Of a DNA stretch of 64,000 nucleotides, positions 14,709-48,917 are shown piece after piece. The DNA comes from Escherichia coli (GTDB lineage: Bacteria > Pseudomonadota > Gammaproteobacteria > Enterobacterales > Enterobacteriaceae). The notes under the pieces are model-generated. The model did not search any database, was not told the origin of the DNA, and saw only the letters and a list, made by a program, of their open reading frames with translations. The stretch lies in NCBI RefSeq assembly GCF_001677475.2, contig NZ_CP015229.1. The stretch is one strand, 5' to 3'. Position 1 is the stretch's first letter; every line of letters begins with the position of its first letter. A program made the translations under genes and the position numbers.

Positions 14709-14755
14709 CCACTGCCAGGGATCTATACACAATCAAGAATGATGAGTGAGGAAAA

Positions 14756-15688: not shown

Positions 15689-15694
15689 TTTAAA

Positions 15695-15727
15695 GGCCGG
15701 GTGGGTAATACCATCCGGCCATTTTCA
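15695..15727. terminator. bidirectional hairpin GGCCGGGTGG-gtaata-CCATCCGGCC between convergent yqeA and yqeB
   Basis: 10-bp stem (one G-U pair) followed by ATTTTCATTT. Confidence 0.6.
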
Positions 15728-15728
15728 T

Positions 15729-17354: not shown

Positions 17355-17401
17355 ACCAACCTCAATGGATATCCTTTCAGTAACCCGGAATACCCGGGCC
17401 G

Positions 17402-18172: not shown

Positions 18173-18274
18173 GAGTCTTTATGACCTCTCTGGGATAAAT
18201 TACCCCCAACTTAATCCATCAGGAAGTAACGCAATTATCAGGCGTTATTAGCCCCTATAAATAATGGAACCACT

Positions 18275-18853: not shown

Positions 18854-19087
18854 AAAACGTAGTTAAACGATTGCGTTCAAATATTTAACCCTTCCAGTTC
18901 TCTTTATCATAATGATAAGGAATCACTGATTTTGAGAAAAGAGAAAAAGTGATAAATGGGTTGCCAATAATAATTTCCAGGAGTGATTTTAATTCTCATT
19001 TGGCACCTGTGAGTTCATTCACAAAAAGCCCCTAAGTTTCGAGCCGCCTCACATTTTTTTATATTTCCCGCCAAACCTGGCAAGAGT

Positions 19088-19103
19088 GGTGCGATTGTTG
19101 CTC
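19088..19103 (+). promoter_or_regulatory. candidate sigma54 promoter upstream of ygfK: TGGCaagagtgGTGC
   Basis: GG and GC at canonical spacing, about 72 nt upstream of ygfK; -12 element GTGC, so imperfect. Confidence 0.3.
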
Positions 19104-19174
19104 TATCCCCCTAAACCACCGGATTTCTCAACACCGGTCACTCAATGATATCTGTATAAGCTAAGGAGAGGGTT

Positions 19175-22273: not shown

Positions 22274-22275
22274 TC

Positions 22276-23604
22276 ATGTTGATTCTGAAGAATGTCACCG
22301 CAGTGCAGTTACACCCAGCGAAAGTGCAGGAAGGCGTTGATATCGCCATCGAAAATGATGTGATTGTCGCTATCGGCGATGCCCTGACGCAACGCTACCC
22401 CGATGCCAGCTACAAAGAGATGCATGGTCGGATTGTGATGCCAGGAATTGTCTGCTCGCACAACCATTTTTACTCGGGGCTGTCCCGCGGAATTATGGCA
22501 AACATCGCCCCCTGCCCGGATTTCATCTCAACGCTGAAAAATCTCTGGTGGCGACTCGATCGCGCCCTTGATGAAGAGTCGCTCTATTACAGCGGACTGA
22601 TTTGTTCCCTGGAAGCGATTAAGAGCGGATGTACATCGGTTATCGATCACCATGCCTCTCCGGCGTATATCGACGGGTCGCTCTCCACATTGCGCAACGC
22701 ATTTTTAAAAGTTGGCCTGCGCGCGATGACCTGTTTTGAAACTACTGACCGTAACAACGGCATCAAAGAGTTGCAGGAAGGTGTAGAAGAAAACATCCGC
22801 TTCGCCCGTCAGATTGATGAGGCGAAGAAAGCAGCAACTGAGCCGTATCTGGTGGAAGCACATATCGGCGCTCACGCGCCGTTTACCGTGCCGGATGCCG
22901 GTCTGGAAATGCTGCGCGAAGCCGTAAAAGCCACTGGGCGTGGTTTACACATTCACGCTGCTGAAGATCTTTACGACGTTTCTCACAGTCACCACTGGTA
23001 CGGCAAAGATCTGCTGGCACGGCTGGCGCAATTCGATCTTATCGATAGCAAAACGCTGGTCGCCCACGGCCTGTATCTGTCGAAAGAGGATATCGCCCTG
23101 CTTAATCAGCATGACGCGTTCCTGGTACATAACGCCCGCTCCAACATGAATAACCATGTTGGTTACAACCATCATCTTAGCGATATCCGCAATCTGGCAC
23201 TGGGAACCGATGGTATCGGTTCAGACATGTTTGAAGAGATGAAATTCGCCTTCTTTAAACATCGTGACGCTGGTGGTCCGCTGTGGCCTGACAGTTTTGC
23301 CAAAGCCCTGACTAACGGCAACGAACTAATGAGTCGCAACTTTGGTGCGAAATTCGGCCTTCTGGAAGCCGGTTATAAAGCTGATTTAACCATTTGCGAT
23401 TACACCTCGCCAACGCCGTTGCTGGCGGACAATATCGCCGGGCATATCGCTTTCGGTATGGGCTCAGGCAGCGTTCACAGCGTGATGGTCAATGGTGTGA
23501 TGGTCTATGAAGACCGACAGTTTAACTTCGATTGCGATTCCATTTATGCGCAAGCCAGAAAAGCCGCTGCCAGTATGTGGCGTCGGATGGATGCGCTGGC
23601 ATAA
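22276..23604 (+). CDS. ssnA: amidohydrolase-family protein (cytosine/guanine deaminase-like)
   Basis: 442 aa; metal-dependent hydrolase HxH motif (SHNHF); 2-bp gap from ygfK. Confidence 0.88.
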   Translation: MLILKNVTAVQLHPAKVQEGVDIAIENDVIVAIGDALTQRYPDASYKEMHGRIVMPGIVCSHNHFYSGLSRGIMANIAPCPDFISTLKNLWWRLDRALDEESLYYSGLICSLEAIKSGCTSVIDHHASPAYIDGSLSTLRNAFLKVGLRAMTCFETTDRNNGIKELQEGVEENIRFARQIDEAKKAATEPYLVEAHIGAHAPFTVPDAGLEMLREAVKATGRGLHIHAAEDLYDVSHSHHWYGKDLLARLAQFDLIDSKTLVAHGLYLSKEDIALLNQHDAFLVHNARSNMNNHVGYNHHLSDIRNLALGTDGIGSDMFEEMKFAFFKHRDAGGPLWPDSFAKALTNGNELMSRNFGAKFGLLEAGYKADLTICDYTSPTPLLADNIAGHIAFGMGSGSVHSVMVNGVMVYEDRQFNFDCDSIYAQARKAAASMWRRMDALA

Positions 23605-23654
23605 ATGACAAATACCCTCTTCCCGTAGGGAAGAGGGTTAAATAAGGAAAGAAG

Positions 23655-24434
23655 ATGATTGAACAATTTTTTAGGCCCGACTCTGTCGAACAGGCGCTGG
23701 AACTGAAGCGCTGCTACCAGGATGAAGCCGTCTGGTTCGCCGGGGGCAGCAAACTCAACGCTACACCAACCCGTACCGATAAAAAGATTGCCATTTCCTT
23801 ACAGGATCTGGAACTGGACTGGGTTGACTGGGATAACGGTGCACTGCGGATTGGCGCAATGTCTCGCTTGCAGTCACTGCGTGATGCGCGATTTATTCCT
23901 GCAGCACTGCGTGAAGCCCTCGGCTTTGTCTACTCTCGCCATGTTCGTAATCAGTCGACCATTGGTGGTGAAATCGCCGCCCGGCAGGAAGAGTCTGTGC
24001 TGCTTCCCGTCCTGCTGGCACTGGATGCTGAACTGGTTTTTGGCAATGGCGAAACACTGTCAATCGAAGAGTACCTGGCCTGCCCATGCGATCGCCTGCT
24101 AACCGAAATTATCATTAAAGATCCGTATCGCACCTGTGCGACCCGCAAAATTAGCCGTTCTCAGGCAGGTTTAACCGTCGTGACGGCAGCCGTTGCAATG
24201 ACAGACCACGACGGTATGCGAATTGCGCTGGATGGCGTCGCCAGTAAAGCCCTGCGTCTGCACGATGTTGAAAAACAAAATCTGGAAGGCAATGCACTTG
24301 AACAGGCTGTCGCCAACGCCATTTTCCCGCAGGAAGATTTGCGGGGCAGCGTGGCCTATAAACGCTATATCACGGGAGTTCTGGTAGCCGACCTGTATGC
24401 CGACTGCCAACAGGCTGGGGAGGAAGCCGTATGA
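23655..24434 (+). CDS. ygfM: FAD-binding subunit of a molybdopterin dehydrogenase
   Basis: 259 aa; CO dehydrogenase flavoprotein-like (AGGSKLN). Confidence 0.85.
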   Translation: MIEQFFRPDSVEQALELKRCYQDEAVWFAGGSKLNATPTRTDKKIAISLQDLELDWVDWDNGALRIGAMSRLQSLRDARFIPAALREALGFVYSRHVRNQSTIGGEIAARQEESVLLPVLLALDAELVFGNGETLSIEEYLACPCDRLLTEIIIKDPYRTCATRKISRSQAGLTVVTAAVAMTDHDGMRIALDGVASKALRLHDVEKQNLEGNALEQAVANAIFPQEDLRGSVAYKRYITGVLVADLYADCQQAGEEAV

Positions 24435-27301
24435 TCATCCACTTTACTTTAAATGGCGCGCCTCAGGAGCTAACCGTTAATCCAGGCGAAAACGTGCAAA
24501 AGCTGTTGTTTAACATGGGAATGCACTCTGTACGCAACAGCGATGATGGATTCGGGTTTGCCGGTTCTGACGCAATTATCTGTAACGGTAATATCGTTAA
24601 CGCGTCCTTGCTTATTGCCGCACAGTTAGAGAAGGCAGATATTCGTACCGCAGAATCTCTGGGCAAATGGAACGAGTTAAGTCTGGTTCAACAGGCAATG
24701 GTTGATGTTGGCGTGGTGCAGTCTGGTTATAACGATCCAGCTGCAGCTCTGATTATCACCGATCTTCTCGATCGCATCGCCGCACCTACCCGCGAAGAGA
24801 TCGACGACGCGCTTTCTGGTTTGTTCAGCCGCGATGCAGGCTGGCAACAATACTATCAGGTCATTGAACTGGCGGTTGCACGTAAAAATAATCCGCAGGC
24901 CACCATTGATATCGCTCCGACTTTCCGTGACGACCTTGAAGTCATTGGCAAGCATTATCCTAAAACTGATGCCGCGAAAATGGTGCAGGCGAAACCCTGC
25001 TATGTTGAAGACCGCATAACGGCTGACGCCTGCGTCATTAAAATGTTACGTAGCCCACACGCTCACGCACTGATTACTCATCTGGATGTCAGCAAAGCTG
25101 AAGCCTTACCGGGCGTCGTTCACGTTATTACTCACCTGAATTGCCCGGATATCTACTATACCCCGGGTGGTCAGAGCGCACCGGAACCGTCACCGCTTGA
25201 CCGCCGTATGTTCGGCAAGAAAATGCGTCATGTCGGCGATCGTGTTGCTGCGGTCGTCGCAGAAAGTGAAGAAATTGCGCTCGAAGCACTGAAGCTCATC
25301 GACGTTGAATATGAAGTGCTTAAGCCGGTAATGTCGATCGACGAAGCAATGGCGGAAGATGCGCCTGTCGTGCACGATGAACCAGTGGTGTATGTTGCTG
25401 GTGCGCCAGATACTCTGGAAGACGATAACAGCCATGCAGCCCAGCGCGGCGAGCATATGATCATCAACTTCCCGATCGGTTCTCGCCCTCGCAAAAATAT
25501 CGCTGCCAGTATTCATGGTCATATTGGCGATATGGACAAAGGCTTTGCCGATGCCGATGTGATCATTGAGAGAACCTATAACTCAACGCAGGCACAGCAG
25601 TGCCCGACTGAAACACATATCTGCTTTACCCGGATGGACGGCGATCGTCTGGTTATCCACGCCTCCACCCAGGTACCATGGCACTTACGCCGCCAGGTCG
25701 CGCGCCTCGTGGGCATGAAACAGCATAAAGTTCATGTCATTAAAGAGCGAGTTGGCGGCGGTTTTGGTTCCAAACAGGACATCCTGCTGGAAGAAGTGTG
25801 CGCCTGGGCAACCTGCGTGACCGGGCGTCCGGTACTGTTCCGCTACACCCGTGAAGAAGAGTTTATTGCTAACACCTCTCGTCACGTCGCGAAAGTCACC
25901 GTCAAACTGGGAGCGAAAAAAGATGGTCGCCTGACGGCAGTGAAGATGGATTTCCGCGCCAACACTGGCCCTTACGGCAACCACTCACTCACCGTACCGT
26001 GTAACGGACCGGCGCTGTCGCTGCCGTTATATCCGTGCGATAACGTCGATTTCCAGGTCACCACCTACTACAGCAACATTTGCCCAAATGGTGCTTATCA
26101 GGGTTATGGCGCACCGAAAGGTAACTTCGCTATCACCATGGCATTAGCGGAACTGGCTGAACAGTTACAGATCGACCAACTGGAAATTATCGAACGTAAC
26201 CGGGTACACGAAGGGCAAGAGCTGAAAATTCTCGGTGCAATCGGTGAAGGTAAAGCGCCGACCTCTGTTCCTTCCGCCGCCAGCTGCGCACTGGAAGAGA
26301 TCCTGCGTCAGGGGCGCGAGATGATCCAATGGTCGTCACCGAAACCGCAAAATGGTGACTGGCATATCGGTCGCGGCGTCGCCATTATCATGCAGAAATC
26401 GGGGATCCCGGATATCGATCAGGCTAACTGCATGATCAAACTGGAATCGGACGGTACCTTTATCGTTCATTCTGGAGGTGCGGATATTGGTACTGGTCTG
26501 GATACTGTGGTGACGAAACTGGCAGCAGAAGTGCTGCACTGCCCACCGCAGGACGTGCATGTTATCTCCGGTGATACCGATCATGCCTTGTTTGATAAAG
26601 GCGCATATGCCTCGTCCGGTACTTGCTTCTCGGGTAACGCGGCGCGTTTAGCAGCGGAAAATCTGCGGGAGAAAATTCTGTTCCACGGCGCGCAAATGTT
26701 GGGTGAGCCAGTGGCAGATGTTCAACTAGCAACGCCGGGCGTCGTGCGCGGCAAGAAAGGCGAAGTTAGTTTCGGGGATATTGCCCATAAAGGCGAAACC
26801 GGCACCGGCTTTGGTTCACTGGTGGGAACTGGCAGTTATATCACGCCTGATTTCGCCTTCACGTATGGCGCAAACTTCGCTGAAGTTGCCGTCAATACGC
26901 GTACGGGTGAAATCCGCCTGGATAAATTCTACGCCTTGCTGGACTGCGGTACACCGGTCAATCCAGAGTTAGCGTTGGGACAAATCTACGGTGCCACCCT
27001 GCGTGCTATCGGCCACAGTATGAGCGAAGAGATCATTTATGACGCCGAAGGTCACCCGTTAACGCGTGATTTACGCAGTTACGGCGCACCGAAAATTGGT
27101 GACATTCCGCGTGATTTCCGCGCTGTGTTGGTGCCGAGCGACGATAAAGTCGGCCCGTTCGGGGCAAAATCGATCTCGGAAATCGGTGTAAATGGCGCAG
27201 CTCCGGCGATTGCTACCGCAATTCACGATGCCTGCGGCATCTGGTTACGCGAATGGCATTTCACACCGGAGAAAATACTCACCGCGCTGGAAAAAATATA
27301 A
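24431..27301 (+). CDS. xdhD: molybdopterin-dependent hydroxylase fused to an N-terminal 2Fe-2S-like domain
   Basis: 956 aa; aldehyde oxidase/xanthine dehydrogenase-type large subunit; start overlaps the ygfM stop (ATGA). Confidence 0.9.
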   Translation: MIIHFTLNGAPQELTVNPGENVQKLLFNMGMHSVRNSDDGFGFAGSDAIICNGNIVNASLLIAAQLEKADIRTAESLGKWNELSLVQQAMVDVGVVQSGYNDPAAALIITDLLDRIAAPTREEIDDALSGLFSRDAGWQQYYQVIELAVARKNNPQATIDIAPTFRDDLEVIGKHYPKTDAAKMVQAKPCYVEDRITADACVIKMLRSPHAHALITHLDVSKAEALPGVVHVITHLNCPDIYYTPGGQSAPEPSPLDRRMFGKKMRHVGDRVAAVVAESEEIALEALKLIDVEYEVLKPVMSIDEAMAEDAPVVHDEPVVYVAGAPDTLEDDNSHAAQRGEHMIINFPIGSRPRKNIAASIHGHIGDMDKGFADADVIIERTYNSTQAQQCPTETHICFTRMDGDRLVIHASTQVPWHLRRQVARLVGMKQHKVHVIKERVGGGFGSKQDILLEEVCAWATCVTGRPVLFRYTREEEFIANTSRHVAKVTVKLGAKKDGRLTAVKMDFRANTGPYGNHSLTVPCNGPALSLPLYPCDNVDFQVTTYYSNICPNGAYQGYGAPKGNFAITMALAELAEQLQIDQLEIIERNRVHEGQELKILGAIGEGKAPTSVPSAASCALEEILRQGREMIQWSSPKPQNGDWHIGRGVAIIMQKSGIPDIDQANCMIKLESDGTFIVHSGGADIGTGLDTVVTKLAAEVLHCPPQDVHVISGDTDHALFDKGAYASSGTCFSGNAARLAAENLREKILFHGAQMLGEPVADVQLATPGVVRGKKGEVSFGDIAHKGETGTGFGSLVGTGSYITPDFAFTYGANFAEVAVNTRTGEIRLDKFYALLDCGTPVNPELALGQIYGATLRAIGHSMSEEIIYDAEGHPLTRDLRSYGAPKIGDIPRDFRAVLVPSDDKVGPFGAKSISEIGVNGAAPAIATAIHDACGIWLREWHFTPEKILTALEKI

Positions 27302-27310
27302 GTAATAAAT

Positions 27311-27338
27311 GGCCGCTTCGGCGGCCTGTTTCTCTGTT
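27311..27338 (+). terminator. rho-independent terminator GGCCGC-ttcg-GCGGCC followed by a T-rich run, after xdhD
   Basis: Stem-loop and T-rich tail read directly. Confidence 0.6.
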
Positions 27339-27465
27339 TGAACGATGACTAAATAGTGACTGCGAAAATGAGATAAGCCGTTCTCAAGGCGTCCTGCGCC
27401 CCAAATTCGTGGGAATTTATTTTACTAATTCAGATGATCAAATTTACTTTAAAAGGAGTGAAGGG

Positions 27466-28866
27466 ATGTCTGATATAAACCATGCAGGTTCTGACCTTAT
27501 ATTTGAACTGGAGGATCGCCCTCCCTTTCATCAGGCTCTCGTTGGTGCCATTACCCATCTGTTGGCAATTTTTGTTCCGATGGTAACCCCCGCGTTAATC
27601 GTGGGTGCAGCCTTACAGCTTTCCGCTGAAACAACCGCCTATCTTGTTTCTATGGCGATGATCGCCTCTGGTATTGGTACCTGGTTACAAGTAAACCGCT
27701 ACGGCATCGTCGGTTCTGGCCTACTCTCAATTCAGTCAGTCAATTTTTCATTTGTTACGGTCATGATTGCGCTGGGCAGCAGCATGAAAAGCGACGGTTT
27801 TCACGAAGAGTTAATCATGTCGTCGCTCCTCGGCGTCTCCTTCGTTGGCGCATTTCTGGTTGTCGGATCTTCATTTATCTTGCCCTATTTACGTCGGGTT
27901 ATTACGCCTACCGTCAGCGGTATTGTGGTACTGATGATCGGCTTAAGCCTGATTAAAGTCGGCATTATCGATTTTGGTGGAGGATTTGCAGCCAAAAGCA
28001 GCGGTACGTTCGGCAATTACGAACATCTCGGCGTTAGTTTATTGGTTTTAATTGTGGTGATCGGCTTTAACTGCTGTCGCAGTCCGTTGCTACGCATGGG
28101 AGGGATCGCCATTGGGCTATGTGTCGGCTATATCGCATCGTTATGCCTGGGCATGGTGGATTTCAGCAGTATGCGCAATTTGCCGTTAATCACCATCCCG
28201 CATCCGTTCAAATACGGCTTTAGTTTTAGCTTCCATCAGTTCCTGGTGGTTGGCACGATTTATCTGCTTAGCGTGCTGGAAGCTGTCGGCGATATCACCG
28301 CCACGGCAATGGTTTCCCGCCGCCCCATTCAGGGGGAAGAGTATCAGTCCCGACTGAAAGGCGGCGTGCTGGCAGATGGTCTGGTTTCTGTTATCGCCTC
28401 CGCTGTCGGTTCATTACCATTAACCACGTTTGCGCAAAATAATGGGGTTATTCAGATGACTGGCGTCGCTTCACGTTATGTCGGGCGAACCATCGCGGTA
28501 ATGCTGGTTATCCTCGGCTTATTTCCGATGATTGGCGGCTTCTTCACAACCATACCCTCGGCAGTTCTGGGAGGCGCAATGACGTTGATGTTTTCCATGA
28601 TTGCTATCGCCGGGATTCGCATCATCATCACCAACGGTTTAAAGCGCCGAGAAACACTTATTGTCGCCACTTCTTTAGGTTTAGGACTTGGCGTCTCCTA
28701 CGATCCCGAAATTTTTAAAATATTGCCAGCCTCTATTTATGTACTAGTTGAAAACCCTATTTGTGCTGGCGGGTTAACTGCGATTTTATTAAATATTATC
28801 CTCCCTGGTGGCTACCGACAGGAAAACGTTCTGCCTGGTATTACCTCAGCGGAAGAGATGGATTAA
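27466..28866 (+). CDS. xanQ: xanthine permease (NCS2/NAT family)
   Basis: Translation from MSDINHAGSDL; multi-pass membrane protein; supplied ORF extends 19 codons upstream; ribosome-binding site AAAGGAG just before this ATG. Confidence 0.88.
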   Translation: MSDINHAGSDLIFELEDRPPFHQALVGAITHLLAIFVPMVTPALIVGAALQLSAETTAYLVSMAMIASGIGTWLQVNRYGIVGSGLLSIQSVNFSFVTVMIALGSSMKSDGFHEELIMSSLLGVSFVGAFLVVGSSFILPYLRRVITPTVSGIVVLMIGLSLIKVGIIDFGGGFAAKSSGTFGNYEHLGVSLLVLIVVIGFNCCRSPLLRMGGIAIGLCVGYIASLCLGMVDFSSMRNLPLITIPHPFKYGFSFSFHQFLVVGTIYLLSVLEAVGDITATAMVSRRPIQGEEYQSRLKGGVLADGLVSVIASAVGSLPLTTFAQNNGVIQMTGVASRYVGRTIAVMLVILGLFPMIGGFFTTIPSAVLGGAMTLMFSMIAIAGIRIIITNGLKRRETLIVATSLGLGLGVSYDPEIFKILPASIYVLVENPICAGGLTAILLNIILPGGYRQENVLPGITSAEEMD

Positions 28867-28880
28867 CAGTAAAGGAGTCA

Positions 28881-30200
28881 ATGATGTCAGGAGAACACAC
28901 GTTAAAAGCGGTACGAGGCAGTTTTATTGATGTCACCCGTACGGTCGATAACCCGGAAGAGATTGCCTCTGTGCTGCGGTTTATTAAGGATGGTTTATTA
29001 CTCATTAAACAGGGAAAAGTGGAATGGTTTGGCGAATGGGAAAACGGAAAGCATCAAATTCCTGACACCATTCGCGTGCGCGACTATCGCGGCAAACTTA
29101 TAGTACCGGGCTTTGTCGATACACATATCCATTATCCGCAAAGTGAAATGGTGGGGGCCTATGGTGAACAATTGCTGGAGTGGTTGAATAAACACACCTT
29201 CCCTACTGAACGTCGTTATGAGGATTTAGAGTACGCCCGCGAAATGTCGGCATTCTTCATCAAGCAGCTTTTACGTAACGGAACCACCACGGCGCTGGTG
29301 TTTGGCACTGTTCATCCGCAATCCGTTGATGCGCTGTTTGAAGTCGCCAGTCATATCAATATGCGTATGATTGCCGGTAAGGTGATGATGGACCGCAACG
29401 CACCGGATTATCTGCTCGACACTGCCGAAAGCAGCTATCACCAAAGCAAAGAGCTGATCGAACGCTGGCACAAAAATGGTCGTCTGTTGTATGCGATTAC
29501 GCCACGCTTCGCCCCTACCTCATCTCCTGAACAGATGGCGATGGCGCAACGCCTGAAAGAAGAATATCCGGATACGTGGGTACATACCCATCTCTGTGAA
29601 AACAAAGATGAAATTGCCTGGGTGAAATCGCTTTATCCTGACCATGATGGTTATCTTGATGTTTACCATCAGTACGGCCTGACCGGTAAAAATTGTGTCT
29701 TTGCTCACTGCGTCCATCTCGAAGAAAAAGAGTGGGATCGTCTCAGCGAAACCAAATCCAGCATTGCTTTCTGTCCGACCTCCAACCTTTACCTCGGCAG
29801 CGGCTTATTCAACTTGAAAAAAGCATGGCAGAAGAAAGTCAAAGTGGGCATGGGAACGGATATCGGTGCCGGAACAACTTTTAACATGCTGCAAACGCTG
29901 AACGAAGCCTACAAGGTATTGCAATTACAAGGCTATCGCCTCTCGGCATATGAAGCGTTTTACCTGGCCACGCTCGGCGGAGCGAAATCTTTGGGCCTTG
30001 ACGATTTGATTGGCAACTTTTTACCTGGCAAAGAGGCTGATTTCGTGGTGATGGAACCCACCGCCACTCCGCTACAGCAGCTGCGCTATGACAACTCTGT
30101 TTCTTTAGTCGACAAATTGTTCGTGATGATGACGTTGGGCGATGACCGTTCGATCTACCGCACCTACGTTGATGGTCGTCTGGTGTACGAACGCAACTAA
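28881..30200 (+). CDS. guaD: guanine deaminase
   Basis: Translation from MMSGEHTLKAVRGSF; amidohydrolase HxH motif (DTHIHYPQ); ribosome-binding site AAAGGAG upstream; the supplied ORF has a 40-codon N-terminal extension that I reject. Confidence 0.9.
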   Translation: MMSGEHTLKAVRGSFIDVTRTVDNPEEIASVLRFIKDGLLLIKQGKVEWFGEWENGKHQIPDTIRVRDYRGKLIVPGFVDTHIHYPQSEMVGAYGEQLLEWLNKHTFPTERRYEDLEYAREMSAFFIKQLLRNGTTTALVFGTVHPQSVDALFEVASHINMRMIAGKVMMDRNAPDYLLDTAESSYHQSKELIERWHKNGRLLYAITPRFAPTSSPEQMAMAQRLKEEYPDTWVHTHLCENKDEIAWVKSLYPDHDGYLDVYHQYGLTGKNCVFAHCVHLEEKEWDRLSETKSSIAFCPTSNLYLGSGLFNLKKAWQKKVKVGMGTDIGAGTTFNMLQTLNEAYKVLQLQGYRLSAYEAFYLATLGGAKSLGLDDLIGNFLPGKEADFVVMEPTATPLQQLRYDNSVSLVDKLFVMMTLGDDRSIYRTYVDGRLVYERN

Positions 30201-30235
30201 TAATAAAACTTTAACATCCTCGTGAGGACATCATT

Positions 30236-31603
30236 ATGTCTGGAGACATCCTACAAACACCGGACGCACCAAAGCCACAGGGCGCGCTGGATAATTATTT
30301 TAAAATTACCGCTCGTGGCAGTACCGTTCGTCAGGAAGTACTGGCTGGCTTAACGACCTTTCTGGCCATGGTTTATTCCGTTATCGTCGTTCCGGGAATG
30401 CTGGGCAAAGCAGGTTTTCCTCCCGCAGCTGTGTTTGTTGCCACCTGTCTGGTCGCGGGCTTCGGCTCGTTGCTGATGGGATTATGGGCCAATTTGCCAA
30501 TGGCGATTGGTTGCGCGATTTCCTTGACGGCGTTTACCGCATTCAGTCTGGTTCTCGGGCAACAAATTAGCGTTCCTGTCGCACTGGGCGCGGTCTTTCT
30601 GATGGGCGTCATCTTCACCGCCATTTCCGTAACCGGTGTGCGTACCTGGATCTTACGTAATTTACCGATGGGGATAGCTCACGGTACAGGTATCGGTATC
30701 GGCCTGTTTCTGCTGCTGATTGCTGCTAACGGTGTGGGAATGGTTATCAAAAACCCGATTGAAGGCTTGCCAGTGGCGCTCGGTGCGTTTACCTCCTTCC
30801 CAGTGATGATGAGCTTGCTGGGGCTGGCGGTCATCTTCGGTCTGGAAAAGTGCCGCGTACCCGGCGGGATCTTGTTGGTGATTATTGCCATCTCGATCAT
30901 CGGCTTAATCTTTGATCCAGCGGTGAAATACCACGGTCTGGTGGCGATGCCAAGCCTGACTGGCGAAGATGGTAAATCTCTGATTTTCAGCCTCGATATT
31001 ATGGGCGCACTCCAGCCAACTGTACTTCCGAGTGTACTGGCATTGGTGATGACCGCAGTGTTCGACGCCACTGGTACCATCCGTGCCGTCGCCGGTCAGG
31101 CGAATTTGTTGGATAAAGACAACCAGATCATCAACGGCGGCAAAGCCCTGACCAGTGACTCAGTAAGTTCAATATTCTCCGGCCTGGTGGGCGCAGCGCC
31201 CGCAGCGGTTTATATCGAATCAGCGGCAGGAACCGCCGCCGGGGGTAAAACAGGGTTAACCGCAACCGTAGTGGGGGTGTTATTCCTGCTGATTCTGTTC
31301 TTATCACCGCTGTCATTTTTGATCCCTGGTTACGCCACTGCACCCGCTCTGATGTACGTAGGTTTGCTGATGTTAAGTAACGTCTCGAAGCTGGATTTCA
31401 ATGATTTTATTGACGCTATGGCTGGCCTGGTGTGTGCCGTGTTCATCGTTCTGACTTGTAATATCGTTACCGGTATTATGCTGGGCTTTGTGACACTGGT
31501 CGTAGGCCGCGTCTTTGCACGCGAATGGCAAAAGCTGAATATTGGTACGGTGATCATTACTGCCGCACTGGTCGCATTTTACGCGGGTGGTTGGGCAATC
31601 TAA
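30236..31603 (+). CDS. ghxQ: guanine/hypoxanthine permease (NCS2 family)
   Basis: 455 aa multi-pass membrane protein. Confidence 0.88.
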
Positions 31604-31608
31604 TAGAT

Positions 31609-31640
31609 TCTCCGCGCCTTTCAGCGCGGAGATTTCTTTC
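31609..31640. terminator. bidirectional terminator TCTCCGCGC-ctttca-GCGCGGAGA with T-run, between ghxQ and ygfS
   Basis: 9-bp perfect stem read directly. Confidence 0.65.
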
Positions 31641-32130
31641 ACAGAGGATTCTCACCGCTGGCAACAATACGCTGCTGGCGGACTCGCCTGAGTTCTCTTT
31701 CAGTAAGCAACTGCAGCGCCTGTGTTGGGCAAGATTCAACGCAGGCTGGCCCCTCTTCCCGCTGTTCACAGAGATCGCATTTCACGATTTGTTGCCGGGT
31801 ATCCCCCGGCAACGACTGAATGGTGATCATTCCAAACGGGCACGCACTGACGCAACTCTGACAGCCAATACAACGGGCAGAATTGGTCTGCACCACCTGC
31901 TCGCCCATCGTCAGCGCCCCCACGGGGCAAGCGCCAACACAAGGGGCGTTTTCACACTGATGGCACATCACCGGCGCACTGATGCTGTCCAGTCGCTGTA
32001 CCTTCAGCCGGGGTAAAAAGACATCGGCATTCAACTCCTGTTCTGAAGGGTGAGCGACCACACAGGCTACTTCACAAGTACGGCAGCCAATACAGTCAGC
32101 CGGATTAACGATAACTAACGATTTCATCAC
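31639..32130 (-). CDS. ygfS: 4Fe-4S ferredoxin-type protein
   Basis: 163 aa with multiple CxxCxxCxxxCP motifs. Confidence 0.88.
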
Positions 32131-34046
32131 GATGCCTTCGTATCAAACAGAGTTAACATATCGCGCGCCGCCTGCCTTCCTGCGGCCATTGCAGTGACAA
32201 CCAGATCCGCGCCATGAACTGCATCACCACCAGCAAAGACTTTTTTCAGATGCGTCTGGGTAGGTAAATACCCGACGTCACCGGTTTGAATCAGGCCCCA
32301 TTTATCGAGTTTAATTCCGCTGCCCTGCAACCACGGCATGGCATGCGCCTGGAAACCAAAGGCCATAATGAGAACATCGGCGGGCAATTCAAACTCTGAA
32401 CCCGCTACCGGACGAGGACGACGGCGACCATCCGGCCCCGGCTCACCCATGGCGGTACGAATCAGGCCCACCGCAGTTAAACGCCCATCTTCGTCACAAG
32501 CGATATATTGCGGCTGAACATTGAACTGAAACTCGACACCTTCCTCGCGCGCATTGACCACCTCTTTGCGCGAGCCCGGCATACTGACTTCATCACGACG
32601 ATACGCGCAGGTCACGCTGGCGGCATTGAGGCGGATGGAAGTCCGCAAACAATCCATGGTCGTATCGCCACCGCCCAATACCACGACTCGCTTACCTTCC
32701 ACATCCGTCAGCGGATACTCTTCAGACTCCGGCAACCCCATGAGCTGGCGGGTATGGGCAGTCAGGAATGGTAGAGCCTGAATGACACCGGGCGCATCTT
32801 CATGCGGCAGATCTGCTCGCATCATCCCGTAAGTCCCCACGCCGATGAAAACTGCATCATATTCAGAAGTTAAATCGCTAAAGGCAATATCGCGGCCAAT
32901 TTCACAGTTAAGATGAAAGTCGATTCCCATTGCGGTGAATATCTCTCGCCGCTGGCTTAATACCGTTTTATCGAGTTTGAAAGGAGGTATGCCAAAAGTC
33001 AGCATACCGCCAATTTCTGGATGGCGATCAAAGACATCAACCTGAACTCCTGCGCGCGCCAAAATATCAGCACACCCTAACCCTGCAGGCCCTGCGCCAA
33101 TCACCGCCACTTTTTCGATACGGGGAACAACTTTGCTGACATCGGGACGCCAGCCCATCGCCAGCGCGGTATCGGTAATGTAGCGTTCCAGATTCCCGAT
33201 AGAGACTGCGCCAGAGTGATCTTTCAAAGTACATGCGCCTTCACAAAGACGGTCCTGTGGACATACCCTGCCGCAGATTTCTGGCAAGGAACTGGTCTGG
33301 TGGCAAAGTTCTGCCGCTTCAATAATCTTTCCTTCCTGCACCAGACGGATGTAATCCGGAATAGCGTTATGCAGCGGGCAATGCCAGTTGCAGTTAGCTT
33401 TTTCGGCGCAATAAACACAGCGGTCACTCTCATAAGTCGCTTGTTGTGGATCCAGCCCGTAATAGATTTCGCCAAAGTGGGTTTTCCGTTCACTCGCTGA
33501 AATTTTATCTGCGCCTTTACGCGAGTTAACGGGGAGCAACGCTGCACTGCGAGATGGCTGAGCGTCTGATGACGCTTTTCCTGCTGCCGTTTTGCGCTGG
33601 CGGACCACCTTTATCTGTTGCAACCCTTTATCGTCCATCAGCCGTAACGCCTGTGTTGGGCAGACTTCAATACAGGCTTGCGTGCCGGAACTACGCTGGT
33701 TACAAAGGTCGCATTTCTGCGCAATCGTATCGACCATCTCAACGACGCCAAAGGGGCAAGCGATTGCGCATCTTTTACAACCAATACATTTTTGCTCGTC
33801 CAGTTGTACGCTATCGGGCTGGAAAGTCAGAGCATTAACCGGACAAGCCGTAACGCAAGGGGCATTGTTGCAGTGATGGCAGGCCACCGGATTCGCAGCC
33901 TGGCCTTTCCCTACAACGTGGATACGCGGTCGAAAGTCACTGTGACTCAGCGGCCAGTTTTCTTGATTATGTGCCATCGCACAGGCAATTTCACAAGCAT
34001 GACAGCCTATACATTCCGCAGCTTCAGCAGCGATAAACTTATTCAT
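32127..34046 (-). CDS. ygfT: fused 4Fe-4S / FAD-NAD(P) pyridine nucleotide-disulfide oxidoreductase
   Basis: Translation from [23 protein letters not shown]; Rossmann motif [12 protein letters not shown]; supplied ORF extends 5 codons upstream; stop overlaps the ygfS start. Confidence 0.88.
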
Positions 34047-34397
34047 TTGCATCCCTTTCATTTAATGAGTTATGTCTTCTCAAATTTCGCGATGCAATAA
34101 ATGGGCATATATTAGGTAGCATGGCCGATTTAATTATAATTTTGCGACTGAGTTCAAATTATTGCCCCTCAATCTGTGCCGCTTTCATTATTTCAACATT
34201 GCCGACCAAAAGAGAGCTAACCAGATAAAAACGATTAAATACGAGAGTGCGACATGCCAGAATGATTAATGAAATATCAATATGAGAAAATTACAGATAA
34301 TTCCATTGTCAGGTTCTCTTCTCATTTTCGTGGTTTAACCACGATTATGTGATTGCCTCCGCAATTCCTGTCTCTAACTCCCCTTCCTCGCAAAAAC

Positions 34398-34413
34398 TGG
34401 CACTCCACGAGCA
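34398..34413 (+). promoter_or_regulatory. candidate sigma54 promoter upstream of uacT: TGGCACtccacgaGCA
   Basis: TGGCAC at -24 and GC at -12 with canonical spacing, about 69 nt upstream of uacT. Confidence 0.35.
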
Positions 34414-34481
34414 TGTGTTTAGACAGTTTCATTAACGTAAACGGTTGCTTTTTACTCTGGCGAGCGAAAGGAGAAACACTG

Positions 34482-35930
34482 ATGAGCGCCATAGATTCCC
34501 AACTTCCCTCATCTTCAGGGCAAGATCGCCCAACTGATGAGGTTGACCGCATATTATCACCAGGAAAGCTGATCATACTCGGTCTGCAACACGTCCTTGT
34601 CATGTACGCAGGTGCAGTCGCTGTTCCTCTTATGATTGGTGACCGACTGGGCCTCTCAAAAGAAGCTATTGCGATGCTCATTAGCTCGGATCTCTTTTGC
34701 TGCGGGATCGTCACATTATTGCAATGTATCGGTATCGGCCGCTTTATGGGGATCCGCCTGCCGGTGATTATGTCGGTGACCTTCGCCGCTGTAACACCAA
34801 TGATAGCCATTGGGATGAACCCGGATATCGGCCTGCTGGGGATATTCGGTGCCACTATCGCCGCGGGTTTTATCACCACATTATTAGCGCCACTTATCGG
34901 TCGCTTGATGCCTTTATTCCCGCCACTGGTTACCGGTGTGGTTATTACTTCTATCGGACTTAGCATCATTCAGGTGGGTATTGACTGGGCCGCAGGAGGT
35001 AAAGGGAATCCGCAATATGGTAATCCTGTTTATTTAGGTATCTCCTTTGCTGTCTTAATTTTTATCTTGCTCATTACTCGCTATGCGAAAGGATTTATGT
35101 CCAACGTCGCCGTATTACTGGGGATTGTATTTGGCTTTTTACTTTCGTGGATGATGAATGAAGTCAATTTATCCGGGCTACATGATGCTTCATGGTTTGC
35201 GATTGTCACGCCGATGTCATTTGGTATGCCGATTTTCGATCCCGTTTCCATTCTGACCATGACTGCCGTGTTAATCATCGTGTTTATCGAGTCGATGGGG
35301 ATGTTCCTGGCACTGGGTGAAATAGTCGGTCGTAAACTCTCTTCACACGATATTATTCGCGGGTTGCGTGTCGATGGCGTAGGGACAATGATAGGCGGAA
35401 CGTTTAACAGCTTCCCCCACACGTCATTTTCTCAAAACGTTGGCCTGGTTAGCGTGACGCGCGTTCATAGCCGCTGGGTGTGTATTTCTTCGGGAATTAT
35501 ATTAATCCTGTTTGGCATGGTGCCAAAAATGGCGGTGCTGGTCGCCTCCATTCCGCAATTTGTGCTGGGCGGTGCTGGGCTGGTGATGTTCGGCATGGTA
35601 CTGGCGACAGGGATTCGAATTCTGTCGCGCTGTAACTACACCACCAACCGTTACAACCTCTATATTGTGGCGATCAGTCTCGGCGTTGGCATGACTCCGA
35701 CGCTCTCTCACGATTTCTTTTCTAAGTTACCGGCCGTACTGCAACCGTTGCTGCATAGCGGCATTATGCTCGCAACCCTTAGCGCCGTTGTGCTGAACGT
35801 CTTCTTTAATGGCTATCAGCATCATGCTGATCTGGTGAAGGAATCCGTCTCTGATAAAGATTTAAAAGTCAGGACAGTACGTATGTGGCTTCTGATGCGC
35901 AAGCTGAAGAAAAATGAGCATGGAGAATAA
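34482..35930 (+). CDS. uacT: uric acid permease (NCS2/NAT family)
   Basis: Translation from MSAIDSQLPSSSGQDRPTDE; supplied ORF has a 43-codon extension; multi-pass membrane protein. Confidence 0.88.
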   Translation: MSAIDSQLPSSSGQDRPTDEVDRILSPGKLIILGLQHVLVMYAGAVAVPLMIGDRLGLSKEAIAMLISSDLFCCGIVTLLQCIGIGRFMGIRLPVIMSVTFAAVTPMIAIGMNPDIGLLGIFGATIAAGFITTLLAPLIGRLMPLFPPLVTGVVITSIGLSIIQVGIDWAAGGKGNPQYGNPVYLGISFAVLIFILLITRYAKGFMSNVAVLLGIVFGFLLSWMMNEVNLSGLHDASWFAIVTPMSFGMPIFDPVSILTMTAVLIIVFIESMGMFLALGEIVGRKLSSHDIIRGLRVDGVGTMIGGTFNSFPHTSFSQNVGLVSVTRVHSRWVCISSGIILILFGMVPKMAVLVASIPQFVLGGAGLVMFGMVLATGIRILSRCNYTTNRYNLYIVAISLGVGMTPTLSHDFFSKLPAVLQPLLHSGIMLATLSAVVLNVFFNGYQHHADLVKESVSDKDLKVRTVRMWLLMRKLKKNEHGE

Positions 35931-36178
35931 TATGAATCTTTTAATGCGCGCTATATTCAGTCTGTTGTTGCTTTTTACTCTCTCTATTCCTGTCATTTCT
36001 GACTGTGTTGCAATGGCCATTGAAAGTCGCTTCAAATATATGATGCTGCTTTTTTAAATGGTTTTACCTGTCGACATCCGCTCAAAACGGGCGGTTGTCG
36101 ATAAACGCTCACTTGGTTAATCATTTCACTCTTCAATTATCTATAATGATGAGTGATCAGAATTACATGTGAGAAATT

Positions 36179-36727
36179 ATGCAAACGGAACACGTCATTT
36201 TATTGAATGCACAGGGAGTTCCCACGGGTACGCTGGAAAAGTATGCCGCACACACGGCAGACACTCTCTTACATCTCGCGTTCTCCAGTTGGCTGTTTAA
36301 TGCCAAAGGACAATTATTAGTTACCCGCCGCGCTCTGAGCAAAAAAGCATGGCCTGGCGTGTGGACTAACTCGGTTTGTGGGCACCCACAACTGGGAGAA
36401 AGCAACGAAGACGCGGTGATCCGCCGTTGCCGTTATGAGCTTGGCGTGGAAATTACGCCTCCTGAATCTATCTATCCTGACTTTCGCTATCGCGCCACCG
36501 ATCCGAATGGCATTGTGGAAAATGAAGTGTGTCCGGTATTTGCCGCACGCACGACCAGTGCATTACAGATCAACGATGATGAAGTGATGGATTATCAATG
36601 GTGTGATTTAGCAGATGTATTACACGGTATTGATGCCACACCGTGGGCGTTCAGTCCGTGGATGGTGATGCAGGCAGCCAATAGTGAAGCAAGAAAATTG
36701 TTGTCTGCTTTCGCGCAGCACAATTAA
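36179..36727 (+). CDS. idi: isopentenyl-diphosphate delta-isomerase (Nudix fold)
   Basis: 182 aa, [22 protein letters not shown]. Confidence 0.92.
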
Positions 36728-36769
36728 AAAACCCCGACATTTGCCGGGGTTGTGAGCATAACGTAATGC

Positions 36770-38287
36770 TTATTTTACCGGACGCATCGCCGGGAACAGA
36801 ATAACGTCGCGGATGGTATGGCTGTTGGTGAACAGCATTACCATACGGTCGATACCAATTCCCAGACCTGCTGTCGGCGGTAAGCCGTGTTCCAGTGCGG
36901 TGACATAATCTTCGTCGTAGAACATCGCTTCGTCGTCACCTGCATCTTTCGCGGCAACCTGATCCAGGAAGCGCTGCGCCTGATCTTCCGCGTCATTCAG
37001 CTCGCTAAAGCCGTTACCGATTTCACGACCACCGATAAAGAACTCAAAGCGGTCTGTGATTTCCGGGTTAACGTCGTTACGACGCGCCAGCGGAGAAACT
37101 TCTGCCGGATATTCAGTAATGAAGGTCGGCTGGATCAGATGTGCTTCTGCCACTTCTTCGAAGATCTCGGTAACGATACGGCCCAGACCCCAGCTCTTCT
37201 CAACGTGGATGCCGATAGATTCAGCAATCGCTTTCGCAGAGTCGAAGTTGTCCAGATCTGCCATGTCGGTTTCCGGGCGATATTTCTTGATCGCTTCACG
37301 CATGGTCAGTTTTTCGAACGGTTTACCGAAGTCCAGCGTTACGTCGCCGTAGGTCACTTCCGTCTTACCGAGAATATCCTGTGCCAGAGTACGGAACAGC
37401 GATTCGGTCAGCTCGATCAGATCTTTGTAATCTGCGTAAGCCATATAGAGTTCCATCATGGTGAACTCTGGGTTATGACGTACGGAAATACCTTCGTTAC
37501 GGAAGTTACGGTTGATTTCGAATACACGCTCGAAGCCACCGACCACCAGACGCTTGAGGTACAGTTCCGGCGCGATACGCAGGTACATGTCGAGATCCAG
37601 CGCATTATGGTGGGTGATGAACGGACGCGCAGCCGCACCGCCTGGGATCACCTGCATCATCGGCGTTTCAACTTCCATAAAGCCGCGATTCACCATGAAC
37701 TGGCGAATGCCAGAGAGGATCTGCGAGCGCACTTTAAAGGTGTTGCGGGATTCATCGTTAGAGATGAGATCCAGATAACGCTGACGATAGCGCGCTTCCT
37801 GGTCCTGCAAGCCGTGGAATTTGTCCGGCAGCGGACGCAGTGCTTTGGTCAGCAGACGCAGCTCGGTGCAGTGGATAGACAGTTCGCCAGTTTTGGTTTT
37901 GAACAGTTTACCTTTCGCGCCGAGGATGTCGCCGAGGTCCCATTTTTTGAACTGCTCGTTGTAAACGCCTTCCGGCAGATCGTCACGGGCAACGTACAGC
38001 TGAATGCGGCCCCCCACGTCCTGCAGGGTAACGAAAGACGCTTTACCCATAATACGACGGGTCATCATGCGGCCGGCAACGGCGACTTCGATGTTCAGCG
38101 CTTCCAGTTCTTCGTTCTCTTTACCGTCGAATTCTGCGTGCAATTGGTCAGAGGTATGATCGCGACGGAAATCGTTCGGGAAGGCAATCCCCTGCTCGCG
38201 CAGGTTCGCCAGCTTCTCACGACGCGTTTTCAGTTCATTGTTAAGATCGACTACCGCGTCAGCGCCCTGTGCGTGTTGTTCAGACAT
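36770..38287 (-). CDS. lysS: lysine--tRNA ligase (constitutive)
   Basis: 505 aa class II aminoacyl-tRNA synthetase; N-terminus [26 protein letters not shown]. Confidence 0.93.
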
Positions 38288-38296: not shown

Positions 38297-39395
38297 TCAT
38301 AACCCTGCTTTCAAACTTGCTTCGATAAATTGATCCAGGCTGCCGTCCAGCACGGCCTGCGTGTTACGGGTTTCTACCCCGGTACGCAGATCTTTAATGC
38401 GGGAGTCATCAAGGACATAAGAACGAATCTGGCTGCCCCAGCCGATGTCGGATTTGTTATCTTCCATCGCCTGCTTCTCGGCATTTTTCTTCTGCATCTC
38501 CAGTTCATAAAGCTTCGCTTTCATCTGCTTCATGGCCTGGTCTTTGTTCTTGTGCTGGGAACGGTCGTTCTGGCACTGGGTCACGATCCCAGTTGGGATG
38601 TGAGTAATACGCACCGCAGATTCGGTACGGTTAACGTGCTGACCGCCCGCGCCGGACGCGCGATAAACGTCAATGCGCAGATCCGCCGGGTTGATTTCGA
38701 TATCAATATCATCATCAACTTCCGGGTAAACAAACGCAGAGCTGAACGACGTGTGGCGACGACCGCCGGAGTCAAACGGGCTCTTACGCACCAGGCGGTG
38801 AACGCCAGTTTCTGTACGCAGCCAGCCGTAAGCGTAATCGCCGGAGATTTTGATCGTCACGGATTTAATACCCGCCACTTCACCTTCCGACTCTTCGATG
38901 ATTTCAGTTTTGAAACCACGCGATTCTGCCCAGCGCAGATACATACGCTCAAGCATGCTCGCCCAGTCCTGTGCTTCCGTACCGCCAGACCCCGCCTGAA
39001 TATCGAGGTAGCAGTCGGCGCTGTCATATTCGCCAGAGAACATACGGCGGAACTCAAGCTGCGCCAGTTTTTCTTCCAGGGCGTCGAGTTCAGCAACGGC
39101 TTCGTTAAAGGTTTCTTCGTCGTCAGCTTCTACAGCCAGTTCCAGCAGACCAGAAACATCTTCCAGCCCCTGTTTCATTTGGTCGAGGGTGTCGACAACG
39201 GCTTCGAGGGAGGAACGCTCTTTACCCAGCGCCTGTGCGCGTTCGGGTTCGTTCCAGACATCCGGCTGTTCCAGCTCGGCGTTTACTTCTTCCAGACGCT
39301 CTTTCTTGGCGTCGTAGTCAAAGATACCCCCTAAGAACGTCGGAGCGTTCCGTGAGGTCCTGAATGCGATTATTTACCGGATTAATTTCAAACAT
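38297..39395 (-). CDS. prfB: peptide chain release factor 2, expressed through a programmed +1 frameshift
   Basis: Minus-strand ATG at 39395 opens a 25-codon frame ending CTT TGA C (39317-39323), preceded by the internal Shine-Dalgarno AGGGGG; the +1 frame then continues to the stop at 38297 and includes the GGQ motif (SGAGGQHVN). Confidence 0.93.
39317..39331 (-). other. prfB: prfB programmed +1 frameshift site: AGGGGGTAT CTT TGA C
   Basis: Read directly on the minus strand. Confidence 0.9.
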
Positions 39396-48095: not shown

Positions 48096-48107
48096 GTAGA
48101 TGAAGTA

Positions 48108-48138
48108 CCGGATGCAATGCTTGTTGCGTTGCATCCGG
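48108..48138. terminator. hairpin CCGGATGCAATGC-ttgtt-GCGTTGCATCCGG between convergent bglA and ygfF
   Basis: Near-perfect 13-bp inverted repeat. Confidence 0.5.
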
Positions 48139-48156
48139 TCAGACAACTTTCCTGCT

Positions 48157-48900: not shown

Positions 48901-48917
48901 TTGTTTTCCCCAAAAAT

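Follow-up and report, generated by a model that had tools for sequence, protein, structure and literature searches.

Why does Escherichia coli keep genes for several purine permeases and a guanine deaminase side by side, and does this group serve purine catabolism or purine salvage? The question is raised by an interval of 8465 nt (positions 27466-35930) in a 64,000-nt stretch of E. coli DNA (contig NZ_CP015229.1)—called the window below—that covers the 65-min ygeV-ygfU region of the chromosome. The interval is annotated with xanQ, guaD, ghxQ, ygfS, ygfT and uacT, and its limits are exact, with the start of xanQ at 27466 and the stop of uacT at 35930. An earlier note, made from the sequence alone, had described three permeases of the NCS2 family and a guanine deaminase next to two enzymes of the xanthine dehydrogenase (XDH) type, and had proposed that the common purines funnel to xanthine and urate in one catabolic island rather than in a collection of salvage genes. 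Its observation was confirmed and its interpretation is partly supported: the note was right in substance, and what it found is already known. We conclude that the interval very probably represents the substrate-supply end of the known anaerobic purine/urate catabolic cluster, which extends from ygeV to uacT. The cluster as a purine/urate catabolic unit has already been published, and the modest new leads that our analysis adds are a candidate YgeV operator, a putative sigma-54 promoter of uacT, and a predicted leader element of xanQ.

Genes of the interval

The annotation was transferred from strain 20 (NZ_CP064847), with which the window is collinear at ~97.7% identity; it departs from strain 20 in its first 2.1 kb, at 48.1-49.1 kb, where it contains ygfF, and over ~190 nt near 62.4 kb. 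Every open reading frame (ORF) of the cluster is intact in the window. The four genes named in the earlier note—xanQ, guaD, ghxQ and uacT—were confirmed as intact ORFs with exact coordinates, but the pair ygfS-ygfT on the minus strand had been overlooked. The genes of the interval are:

27466-28866, plus strand: xanQ (ygfO), xanthine:H+ symporter of the NAT/NCS2 family, 466 aa, intact ORF, RefSeq annotation
28884-30200, plus strand: guaD (ygfP), guanine deaminase (guanine to xanthine), 438 aa, 17 nt after xanQ
30236-31603, plus strand: ghxQ (ygfQ), guanine/hypoxanthine permease, AzgA-like branch of PF00860 by sequence matches, 455 aa
31639-32127, minus strand: ygfS, ferredoxin-like 4Fe-4S dicluster protein, with Fer4 Pfam domains and HydN-like NCBIfam matches
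32127-34046, minus strand: ygfT (uacF), Fe-S/flavin GltD-like oxidoreductase, "formate-dependent uric acid utilization protein"
34482-35930, plus strand: uacT (ygfU), urate:H+ symporter of the NAT/NCS2 family, 482 aa

XanQ and UacT match TIGR00801 with 455.3 and 454.0 bits (cut-off 291.8) and PF00860 with 370.6 and 414.1 bits (cut-off 27), UacT additionally reaches 510 bits on TIGR03173, and both proteins contain the NAT signature [QEP]-N-x-G-x4-T-[RKG], as QNNGVIQMTG at residue 324 of XanQ and as QNVGLVSVTR at residue 318 of UacT. They share PF00860, TIGR00801 and this motif with the family of the NAT/NCS2 transporters UapA (A. nidulans) and UraA (E. coli) (PDB 5I6C, 3QE7), whose chains are matched by UacT at E ~1e-30, whereas the substrates differ, being xanthine only for XanQ and urate for UacT according to the RefSeq names and the citing papers. 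The proton coupling of xanthine and urate transport is putative, as given by the RefSeq product names and by the works cited for it in the literature (Karatza/Karena and Frillingos; Papakostas and Frillingos 2012). GhxQ matches PF00860 as well (275.2 bits), but it matched no NCBIfam family at E <= 0.001, and so no NCS2 model, and it lacks the NAT motif. BLASTP of GhxQ against XanQ and UacT was not significant (E = 0.095 and 0.43, respectively), and its matches in the PDB were solely AZG1 (E = 2.3e-36) and AZG2 (E = 1.2e-26). PF00860 is common to GhxQ and the AzgA-like permeases (A. nidulans AzgA; plant AZG1/AZG2, PDB 8IRL, 9J12; E. coli GhxP/YjcD), whereas the TIGR00801 match and NAT motif of XanQ and UacT are absent. 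By these matches GhxQ is a predicted member of the AzgA-like branch and not of the NAT branch, and the common label "NCS2", which fits GhxQ only in the broad PF00860/TCDB sense, hides a deep split. The idea of three NCS2 permeases therefore stands for XanQ and UacT, and for GhxQ only in that broad sense. E. coli has 10 NCS2 paralogues in ~4.6 Mb (PMC3809563), and three of the ten within 8.5 kb are more than expected by chance. The deaminase assignment of GuaD agrees with two equivalog matches, TIGR02967 (632.6 bits, cut-off 375.4) and NF006679 (734.9 bits, cut-off 351).

YgfT scored 1498.1 bits on the equivalog NF009451 (cut-off 1154) and contains Fer4_20, Pyr_redox_2 and Fer4_7/11 domains, which places it in the YgfT/AegA family. 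YgfS is 45% identical to the N-terminus of YgfT, and the start of ygfS overlaps the stop of ygfT by 1 nt, so that the two genes are translationally coupled. Urate induces ygfT (Liu et al., bioRxiv 10.1101/2022.07.24.501321), and YgfT-YgfS would represent an Fe-S/flavin electron-transfer module linked to formate-dependent urate use.

Link to the urate-reducing enzymes

The interval is preceded in the window by the genes of the catabolic enzymes and of the presumed regulator:

3600-7262, plus strand: xdhABC, xanthine dehydrogenase (hypoxanthine to xanthine to urate) by annotation, ~20 kb from the permeases
7302-9080, minus strand: ygeV, sigma-54 enhancer-binding protein by annotation, presumed regulator of the cluster
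9560-15688, plus strand: ygeW-ygeX(dpaL)-ygeY-hyuA-yqeA(arcC), lower reductive urate pathway
19175-23604, plus strand: ygfK-ssnA, isoxanthine dearomatising reductase and ring-opening amidohydrolase
23655-27301, plus strand: ygfM-xdhD, FAD and Mo/Fe-S subunits of the urate-to-isoxanthine reductase, by annotation, intact ORFs and Li et al.

The supposed adjacency to two XDH-type enzymes applies to ygfM-xdhD, which ends 164 nt upstream of xanQ and is the sole enzyme of this type that adjoins the permeases, but not to xdhABC, which is ~20 kb off. Anaerobic degradation of urate by the neighbouring enzymes and the formation of urate from xanthine by XdhA have been described by Liu et al. (bioRxiv 10.1101/2022.07.24.501321) and by Li et al. 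(PMC12507026), and the latter reconstituted the steps of urate breakdown: after the reduction of urate to isoxanthine by XdhD-YgfM, isoxanthine is dearomatised and its ring opened by YgfK and SsnA, and HyuA, YgeY, YgeW, YqeA and YgeX complete the conversion to pyruvate and ammonia. In the same study, a delta-xdhA strain did not consume xanthine, and a delta-xdhD strain accumulated urate from xanthine. XdhD thus acts after urate, and the earlier view of XdhD as a second xanthine hydroxylase has to be given up. All genes of this reductive cluster—xdhD-ygfM, ygfK, ssnA, hyuA, ygeY, ygeW, yqeA and ygeX—are intact in the window at one locus (9560-27301). In comparison with the ygeV-ygfU cluster of E. 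coli K-12 (b2869-b2888; Liu et al. 2023; Kasahara et al. 2023; Li et al. 2025), genes, order and orientation are identical, the pathway ORFs of the window are all intact, and there is no material difference, apart from another variable segment to the left of tRNA-Gly (with glycoside hydrolase family 15 (GH15) and GhoT/OrtT genes); the window is 97-99% identical to E. coli genomes. The interval itself has a match in 5373 of 5426 complete genomes of E. coli (95-99% identity), in a single place per genome.

From these data, the following route can be proposed. Xanthine would be imported by XanQ, guanine and hypoxanthine by GhxQ, and urate by UacT, and guanine would be deaminated by GuaD to xanthine. 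XdhABC, encoded 20 kb upstream, oxidises hypoxanthine and xanthine to urate, which the adjoining XdhD-YgfM reduces to isoxanthine, and YgfK, SsnA, HyuA, YgeY, YgeW, YqeA and YgeX then convert isoxanthine to pyruvate, ammonia and CO2, with a gain of ATP via carbamate kinase. The contribution of each permease to the catabolic flux in vivo is what we infer here. The proposed funnelling of guanine, hypoxanthine and xanthine into urate was correct and already published, and the same holds for the single catabolic island (Liu et al.; Li et al., PMC12507026). A 2025 review (PMC12623156) assigns xanQ, guaD, ghxQ, uacF-ygfS and uacT explicitly to this "island". In the published papers on the pathway, xanQ, guaD and ghxQ are not treated.

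For these three genes, the synteny across genera is informative. A pattern-limited scan for XdhD in 100,044 species genomes yielded at least 68 loci, to which the proteins of the window were mapped by tblastn, and all counts given here refer to those 55 loci from 20 genera, among the matches listed, that have at least 9 kb downstream of xdhD. In 53 of the 55 loci and 18 of the 20 genera, guaD-ghxQ directly follow xdhD on the same strand, the two exceptions to the order xdhD-(xanQ)-guaD-ghxQ being Betaproteobacteria; the check by synteny that the earlier note had suggested is thereby in its favour. xanQ is present between xdhD and guaD in 40 loci, and uacT was found in 18 loci, all from Enterobacteriaceae. 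ygfS is missing in Atlantibacter and some Citrobacter, and three loci from Citrobacter amalonaticus-like genomes and Klebsiella indica (L007, L052, L053) lack ygfS-ygfT altogether and have uacT on the same strand 64-88 nt after ghxQ, resulting in a four-gene block xanQ-guaD-ghxQ-uacT. In Aeromonas and Serratia, xdhABC adjoins ghxQ. In Morganella and Vibrio, guaD begins just 63-123 nt after xdhD and is likely co-transcribed with ygfM-xdhD. Four Vibrio loci (L039, L041, L042, L070) are rearranged to mocA, ygfM-xdhD-guaD-ghxQ and then ygfK-ssnA, without xanQ. Judged from gene order, the synteny gives strong comparative support to a functional link of GuaD and GhxQ with the urate-reducing enzyme, and this link goes beyond the published statements on xanQ, guaD and ghxQ.

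A candidate YgeV operator and a putative promoter of uacT

The YgeV iModulon of PRECISE-1K contains purine-catabolic genes (PMC10602906), and the published list comprises uacT, ygfT, xdhABC, ygeWXY, hyuA, ygfK, ssnA, ygfM and xdhD. uacT and ygfT are therefore co-expressed with both hydroxylases. A ygeV mutant has reduced ygfT expression, as stated in PMC10602906 where it cites Iwadate and Kato. Chromatin immunoprecipitation sequencing (ChIP-seq) gave sigma-54 sites upstream of xdhA, ygeW, ygfK and, weakly, ygfT, and the ygeW site was also obtained by genomic systematic evolution of ligands by exponential enrichment (gSELEX). We found these published motifs in the window at 3528-3544, 9450-9466, 19087-19102 and 34094-34110 (minus strand), together with a recurring palindrome and further candidate elements:

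34094-34110, minus strand: weak sigma-54 site upstream of ygfT, TATGCCCATTTATTGCA, which is the K-12 ChIP-seq site OS32 (Bonocora 2015) with one substitution
34397-34415, plus strand: candidate sigma-54 promoter of uacT, CTGGCACTCCACGAGCATG, CTGGCAC-N7-GCATG with GG-N10-GC spacing, ~70 nt before the uacT start
34274-34288: palindromic enhancer-like motif ATATCAATATGAGAA, candidate YgeV site for the divergent ygfT and uacT, conserved in 10 genera
9235-9249: ATATCAATATGAGAA once more, without any change, in the ygeV-ygeW spacer; the ygeW sigma-54 promoter (9450-9466) follows ~208 nt downstream
18904-18918: palindrome TTATCATTATGATAA, ~176 nt upstream of the ygfK sigma-54 promoter (19087-19102)
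3417-3430, minus strand: motif TATCAATATGAGTG upstream of xdhA, whose sigma-54 site is at 3528-3544
34348-34363: CRP-like site TGTGATTGCCTCCGCA upstream of the uacT promoter, GTGA-N8-C.C partly conserved, the Buttiauxella version being near TGTGA-N6-TCACA

The palindrome has the consensus T(A/C)TCA-N3-TGA(G/T)A and is common to the uacT/ygfT, xdhA, ygeW and ygfK promoters. The chance of an exact 15-mer being common to two 450-nt spacers is estimated at ~4e-4, and all 10 hits of a position weight matrix (PWM) with at least 13 bits in the 64-kb window are within 3396-34288. Across ~60 related loci, the palindrome keeps near-constant distances to the genes that it precedes: ~265 nt for ygfK (33 scans), ~200-270 nt for uacT in most loci, and 166-260 nt for xdhA. 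In operons headed by ygfM-xdhD, as in Kluyvera, Vibrio, Aliivibrio and Ferrimonas, it is ~255-300 nt before ygfM, and it also occurs in Aeromonas and in a Rhodocyclaceae genome, there adjoining ygeV. Its distances to the sigma-54 motifs, 105-210 nt, are typical for enhancer-binding proteins. At uacT, the core of the putative sigma-54 promoter does not vary among 10 genera, although the spacer around it has diverged so far that it can no longer be aligned; at ygfT, the -24 element is poorly conserved in other genera. Two points speak against a sigma-54 promoter of uacT, namely its non-consensus -12 region (GAGCA) and the fact that the motif is unlisted in the published sigma-54 ChIP-seq and gSELEX tables. 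Weighing these points, we lean towards the interpretation that the palindrome is the YgeV operator and that uacT has an unreported sigma-54 promoter, and we found no earlier description of either in the literature. uacT and ygfT-ygfS would then have sigma-54 promoters and a palindromic enhancer in common with the operons of xdhA, ygeW and ygfK, as the first of what appear to be two tiers of regulation.

Such an arrangement would resemble known regulons of sigma-54 and enhancer-binding proteins (NtrC/glnAp2, FhlA/hyc, RutR-independent rutA), which likewise have a -24/-12 promoter with GG-N10-GC and an inverted-repeat enhancer, here 105-210 nt upstream, and as in sigma-54-dependent catabolic regulons, a gene for a dedicated enhancer-binding protein, ygeV, is present inside the cluster. 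Unlike the NtrC- and FhlA-type systems, the YgeV operator and the uacT promoter are proposed from sequence conservation alone. The CRP-like site upstream of uacT may parallel the Crp site of the ygeV-ygeW spacer (Li et al.).

Some further observations concern these motifs. A perfect-looking copy of the palindrome, TTCTCAATGTGAGAA, is present at 17514-17528 in the 3' end of the minus-strand gene yqeC, ~165 nt upstream of the yqeB start (17354), and nearly every Enterobacterales locus retains it (61 PWM hits); a sigma-54 promoter for yqeB was not found between this intragenic palindrome and yqeB. In the four rearranged Vibrio loci, copies of the palindrome precede both ygfM and ygfK. Control by PurR was considered as well, and a PurR-box search (ACGCAAACGTTTGCGT, up to three mismatches) gave a single match at 34435-34450, which is at chance level (45 of 100 shuffles).

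xanQ-guaD-ghxQ as a possible separate unit

The genes xanQ, guaD and ghxQ are tightly packed, with gaps of 17 and 35 nt, and three hairpins are associated with them:

27311-27326, plus strand: hairpin GGCCGCTTCGGCGGCC directly 3' of the xdhD stop
27430-27473, plus strand: xanQ leader hairpin, in which the 16-mer TCAGATGATCAAATTT (27430-27445) pairs with GGGAUGUCUGA, covering the AUG at 27466-27468
31609-31632: GC-rich hairpin between the convergent ghxQ and ygfS, with a 9-bp stem including 7 GC pairs, followed by TTTCTTTC

The last of these is likely the terminator of the xanQ-guaD-ghxQ unit. The stem behind xdhD is kept in other genera by changes on both arms, for example as GGGCCGC/GCGGCCC or GGGGCTGC/GCAGCCCC, and likely functions as terminator or stabiliser of the ygfK-ssnA-ygfM-xdhD transcript. 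This conserved hairpin after xdhD suggests a separate or attenuated transcript for xanQ. A scan for sigma-70 promoters in 27000-36800 gave 11 sites when 12 were expected, and is uninformative; inspection by eye likewise gave no convincing sigma-70 promoter of xanQ.

The leader is conserved in an unusual way. In more than 25 Enterobacterales species, the 16-mer TCAGATGATCAAATTT is essentially invariant at ~20 nt before the start of xanQ, and the Shine-Dalgarno/start region GGAGTRAAGGGATGTCTGAT varies just as little, even at the synonymous positions of codons 2-3. The pairing of UCAGAU.AUC with GAU.GUCUGA encloses the AUG. In an RNAalifold analysis of 24 sequences, 14 pairs were kept in all 24, with two one-sided changes, length variation only in the loop, and no compensatory covariation; sequences of 6 genera gave one and the same fold (z-scores of -2.2 to -3.9). 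Aeromonas lacks the element. In Rfam, the interval had no match at the gathering threshold, and the leader gave nothing meaningful at E <= 1. The xanQ leader resembles the NMT1 (xanthine/urate) and purine riboswitches in being a small conserved hairpin before a purine transporter that would occlude the translation start, but it matches no Rfam model, those two included, and it lacks compensatory covariation; identity with an NMT1 or purine riboswitch is excluded by the missing Rfam match. The simplest reading would be a translational gate. That the sequence is completely invariant points to a specific partner that recognises it more than to structure alone; the leader could act as a novel riboregulator that responds to purines, or a particular protein or small RNA could bind to it. 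That xanQ-guaD-ghxQ is under post-transcriptional control by an undescribed leader of 44-55 nt, with the invariant arms TCAGATGATCAAATTT and GGGATGTCTGAT, is a speculative proposal that we ourselves regard as rather improbable. In the apparent second tier of regulation, xanQ-guaD-ghxQ is a separate unit, with the conserved post-xdhD hairpin before it, a terminator after it, and a conserved leader hairpin that occludes the xanQ start codon.

Other explanations of the conserved leader were considered. A 17-codon small ORF in antisense orientation over the leader was rejected, since the loop contains indels between species whose lengths are not divisible by three, and the ATG is not conserved. 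To our knowledge, the 16-mer has no convincing fit to the consensus sequences of RutR, Cra, Fur, FNR or CRP. A "Flavobacterium" contig seemed to show that the 16-mer is deeply conserved, but this was an artefact, as the contig is an error-ridden E. coli sequence: the 7676 nt of NZ_JAUFQN010000014.1 ("Flavobacterium paronense", L067) carry E. coli ygfK-xdhD-xanQ with numerous indel errors, XdhD seems to be just 55% identical although the intergenic region hardly differs from that of the window, and the assembly is probably contaminated.

Catabolism or salvage

The regulation of xanQ-guaD-ghxQ thus differs in part from what the earlier note had expected, as its test for shared expression and a shared regulator turned out in favour of uacT and ygfT, by the YgeV iModulon and by the sigma-54 and enhancer-like motifs, but not of these three genes. 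It could be argued that they are primarily a module for salvage or pool balancing, which merely neighbours the catabolic operons and is regulated independently, taking up guanine, hypoxanthine and xanthine and converting guanine to xanthine for the Gpt-dependent synthesis of xanthosine monophosphate (XMP). Xanthine made by GuaD is also a salvage substrate, so that the catabolic grouping leaves room for a salvage role, and Xi and colleagues are said to have proposed such a role for XDH in 2000. This and the following points weigh against a supply function in catabolism: xanQ, guaD and ghxQ are missing from the published YgeV iModulon list, no sigma-54-like match with up to two mismatches was found in the 27302-27465 region upstream of xanQ, the stretch from xdhD to xanQ had no hit of the palindrome PWM, neither in the window nor in any of the ~60 loci, we found no report in the literature of permease or guaD mutants assayed for anaerobic purine catabolism, and an assay with purine analogues revealed no phenotype of the delta(xanQ-uacT) deletion (PMC3809563). 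The conserved hairpin that parts xdhD from xanQ and the unit's own conserved leader also favour the salvage explanation. A pure salvage function of xanQ-guaD-ghxQ is compatible with this separate regulation, but not with the synteny, as the position of guaD-ghxQ behind xdhD is maintained in Enterobacterales, Aeromonadales, Vibrionales and Ferrimonas, co-transcription is likely where the xdhD-guaD gap is short, and uacT has joined behind ghxQ in three species. Moreover, E. coli has the separate paralogues xanP and ghxP/yjcD, of which at least ghxP is repressed by PurR, a hallmark of salvage genes (PMC3809563), whereas no convincing PurR box is present here. We therefore consider it unlikely that salvage is the primary function of the three genes, and prefer the supply of substrates to the catabolic cluster.

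The grouping might also simply reflect a recently acquired "genomic island", in which the gene order stems from the donor and not from selection in E. coli. The cluster indeed adjoins tRNA-Gly (2283-2353) and a strain-variable segment of low GC content (0.425 in positions 1-4000), and its spread in Enterobacteriaceae looks patchy, with no Salmonella or Enterobacter among the matches listed from our pattern-limited scan. However, the GC content of the cluster (0.48-0.53) equals that of the flanking core genes, no mobility genes are annotated inside it, the regulatory motifs are conserved across orders, and the interval has one and the same place in 5373 of the 5426 E. coli genomes. A recent horizontal transfer is very unlikely because of the normal GC content and the near-universal presence in E. 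coli. The reading that the interval supplies substrates for anaerobic purine and urate catabolism is thus the one that we retain.

Other features of the window

In its left part, the window has the order variable segment, tRNA-Gly, actS, xdhABC, ygeV (minus strand), ygeW-ygeX-ygeY-hyuA-yqeA, yqeB-yqeC (minus strand) and mocA, followed in the right part by ygfK-ssnA-ygfM-xdhD, xanQ-guaD-ghxQ, ygfS-ygfT (minus strand), uacT, idi, lysS, prfB and recJ, and on to scpA. Positions 1-2140, which are not collinear with strain 20 (yqeF/yqeG there), carry genes for a GH15 protein and a GhoT/OrtT toxin. This left-end arrangement adjoins the tRNA-Gly gene at a known variable site, glyU, has a GC content of 0.425, and is present in about half of the E. 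coli genomes (2723). A second segment, 48099-49087 between bglA and gcvP, contains ygfF (SDR oxidoreductase) and is missing from the best-matching reference strain; its best identity among complete E. coli genomes was 93.7%, well under that of the flanks, and the query included a repeat with ~25 copies per genome as well as an Rfam ES036 (CssrF) small RNA at 48999-49041. A further ~190 nt are extra in comparison with strain 20 between rpiA and argP (62326-62517). Known ordinary features are 6S RNA (ssrS, 58944-59127), the SIB RNA/ibsC toxin-antitoxin pair (59776-59926), and prfB (~38297-39395), for which a programmed frameshift is annotated in the reference.

Implications

Gut bacteria with this cluster lower host uric acid, which is relevant for gout and hyperuricaemia, and engineered E. 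coli Nissle strains make use of the cluster (Li et al.), so that its importance is already recognised. If confirmed, the candidate YgeV operator—present at five promoters and found from Escherichia to Aeromonas, Vibrio and a Rhodocyclaceae genome—would define the regulon of an uncharacterised regulator, and a sigma-54 promoter of uacT would explain how urate uptake follows the catabolic genes. A separately wired xanQ-guaD-ghxQ unit with a leader that occludes the start codon would suggest that the entry of xanthine and guanine is gated unlike the entry of urate, which bears on uricolytic probiotics.

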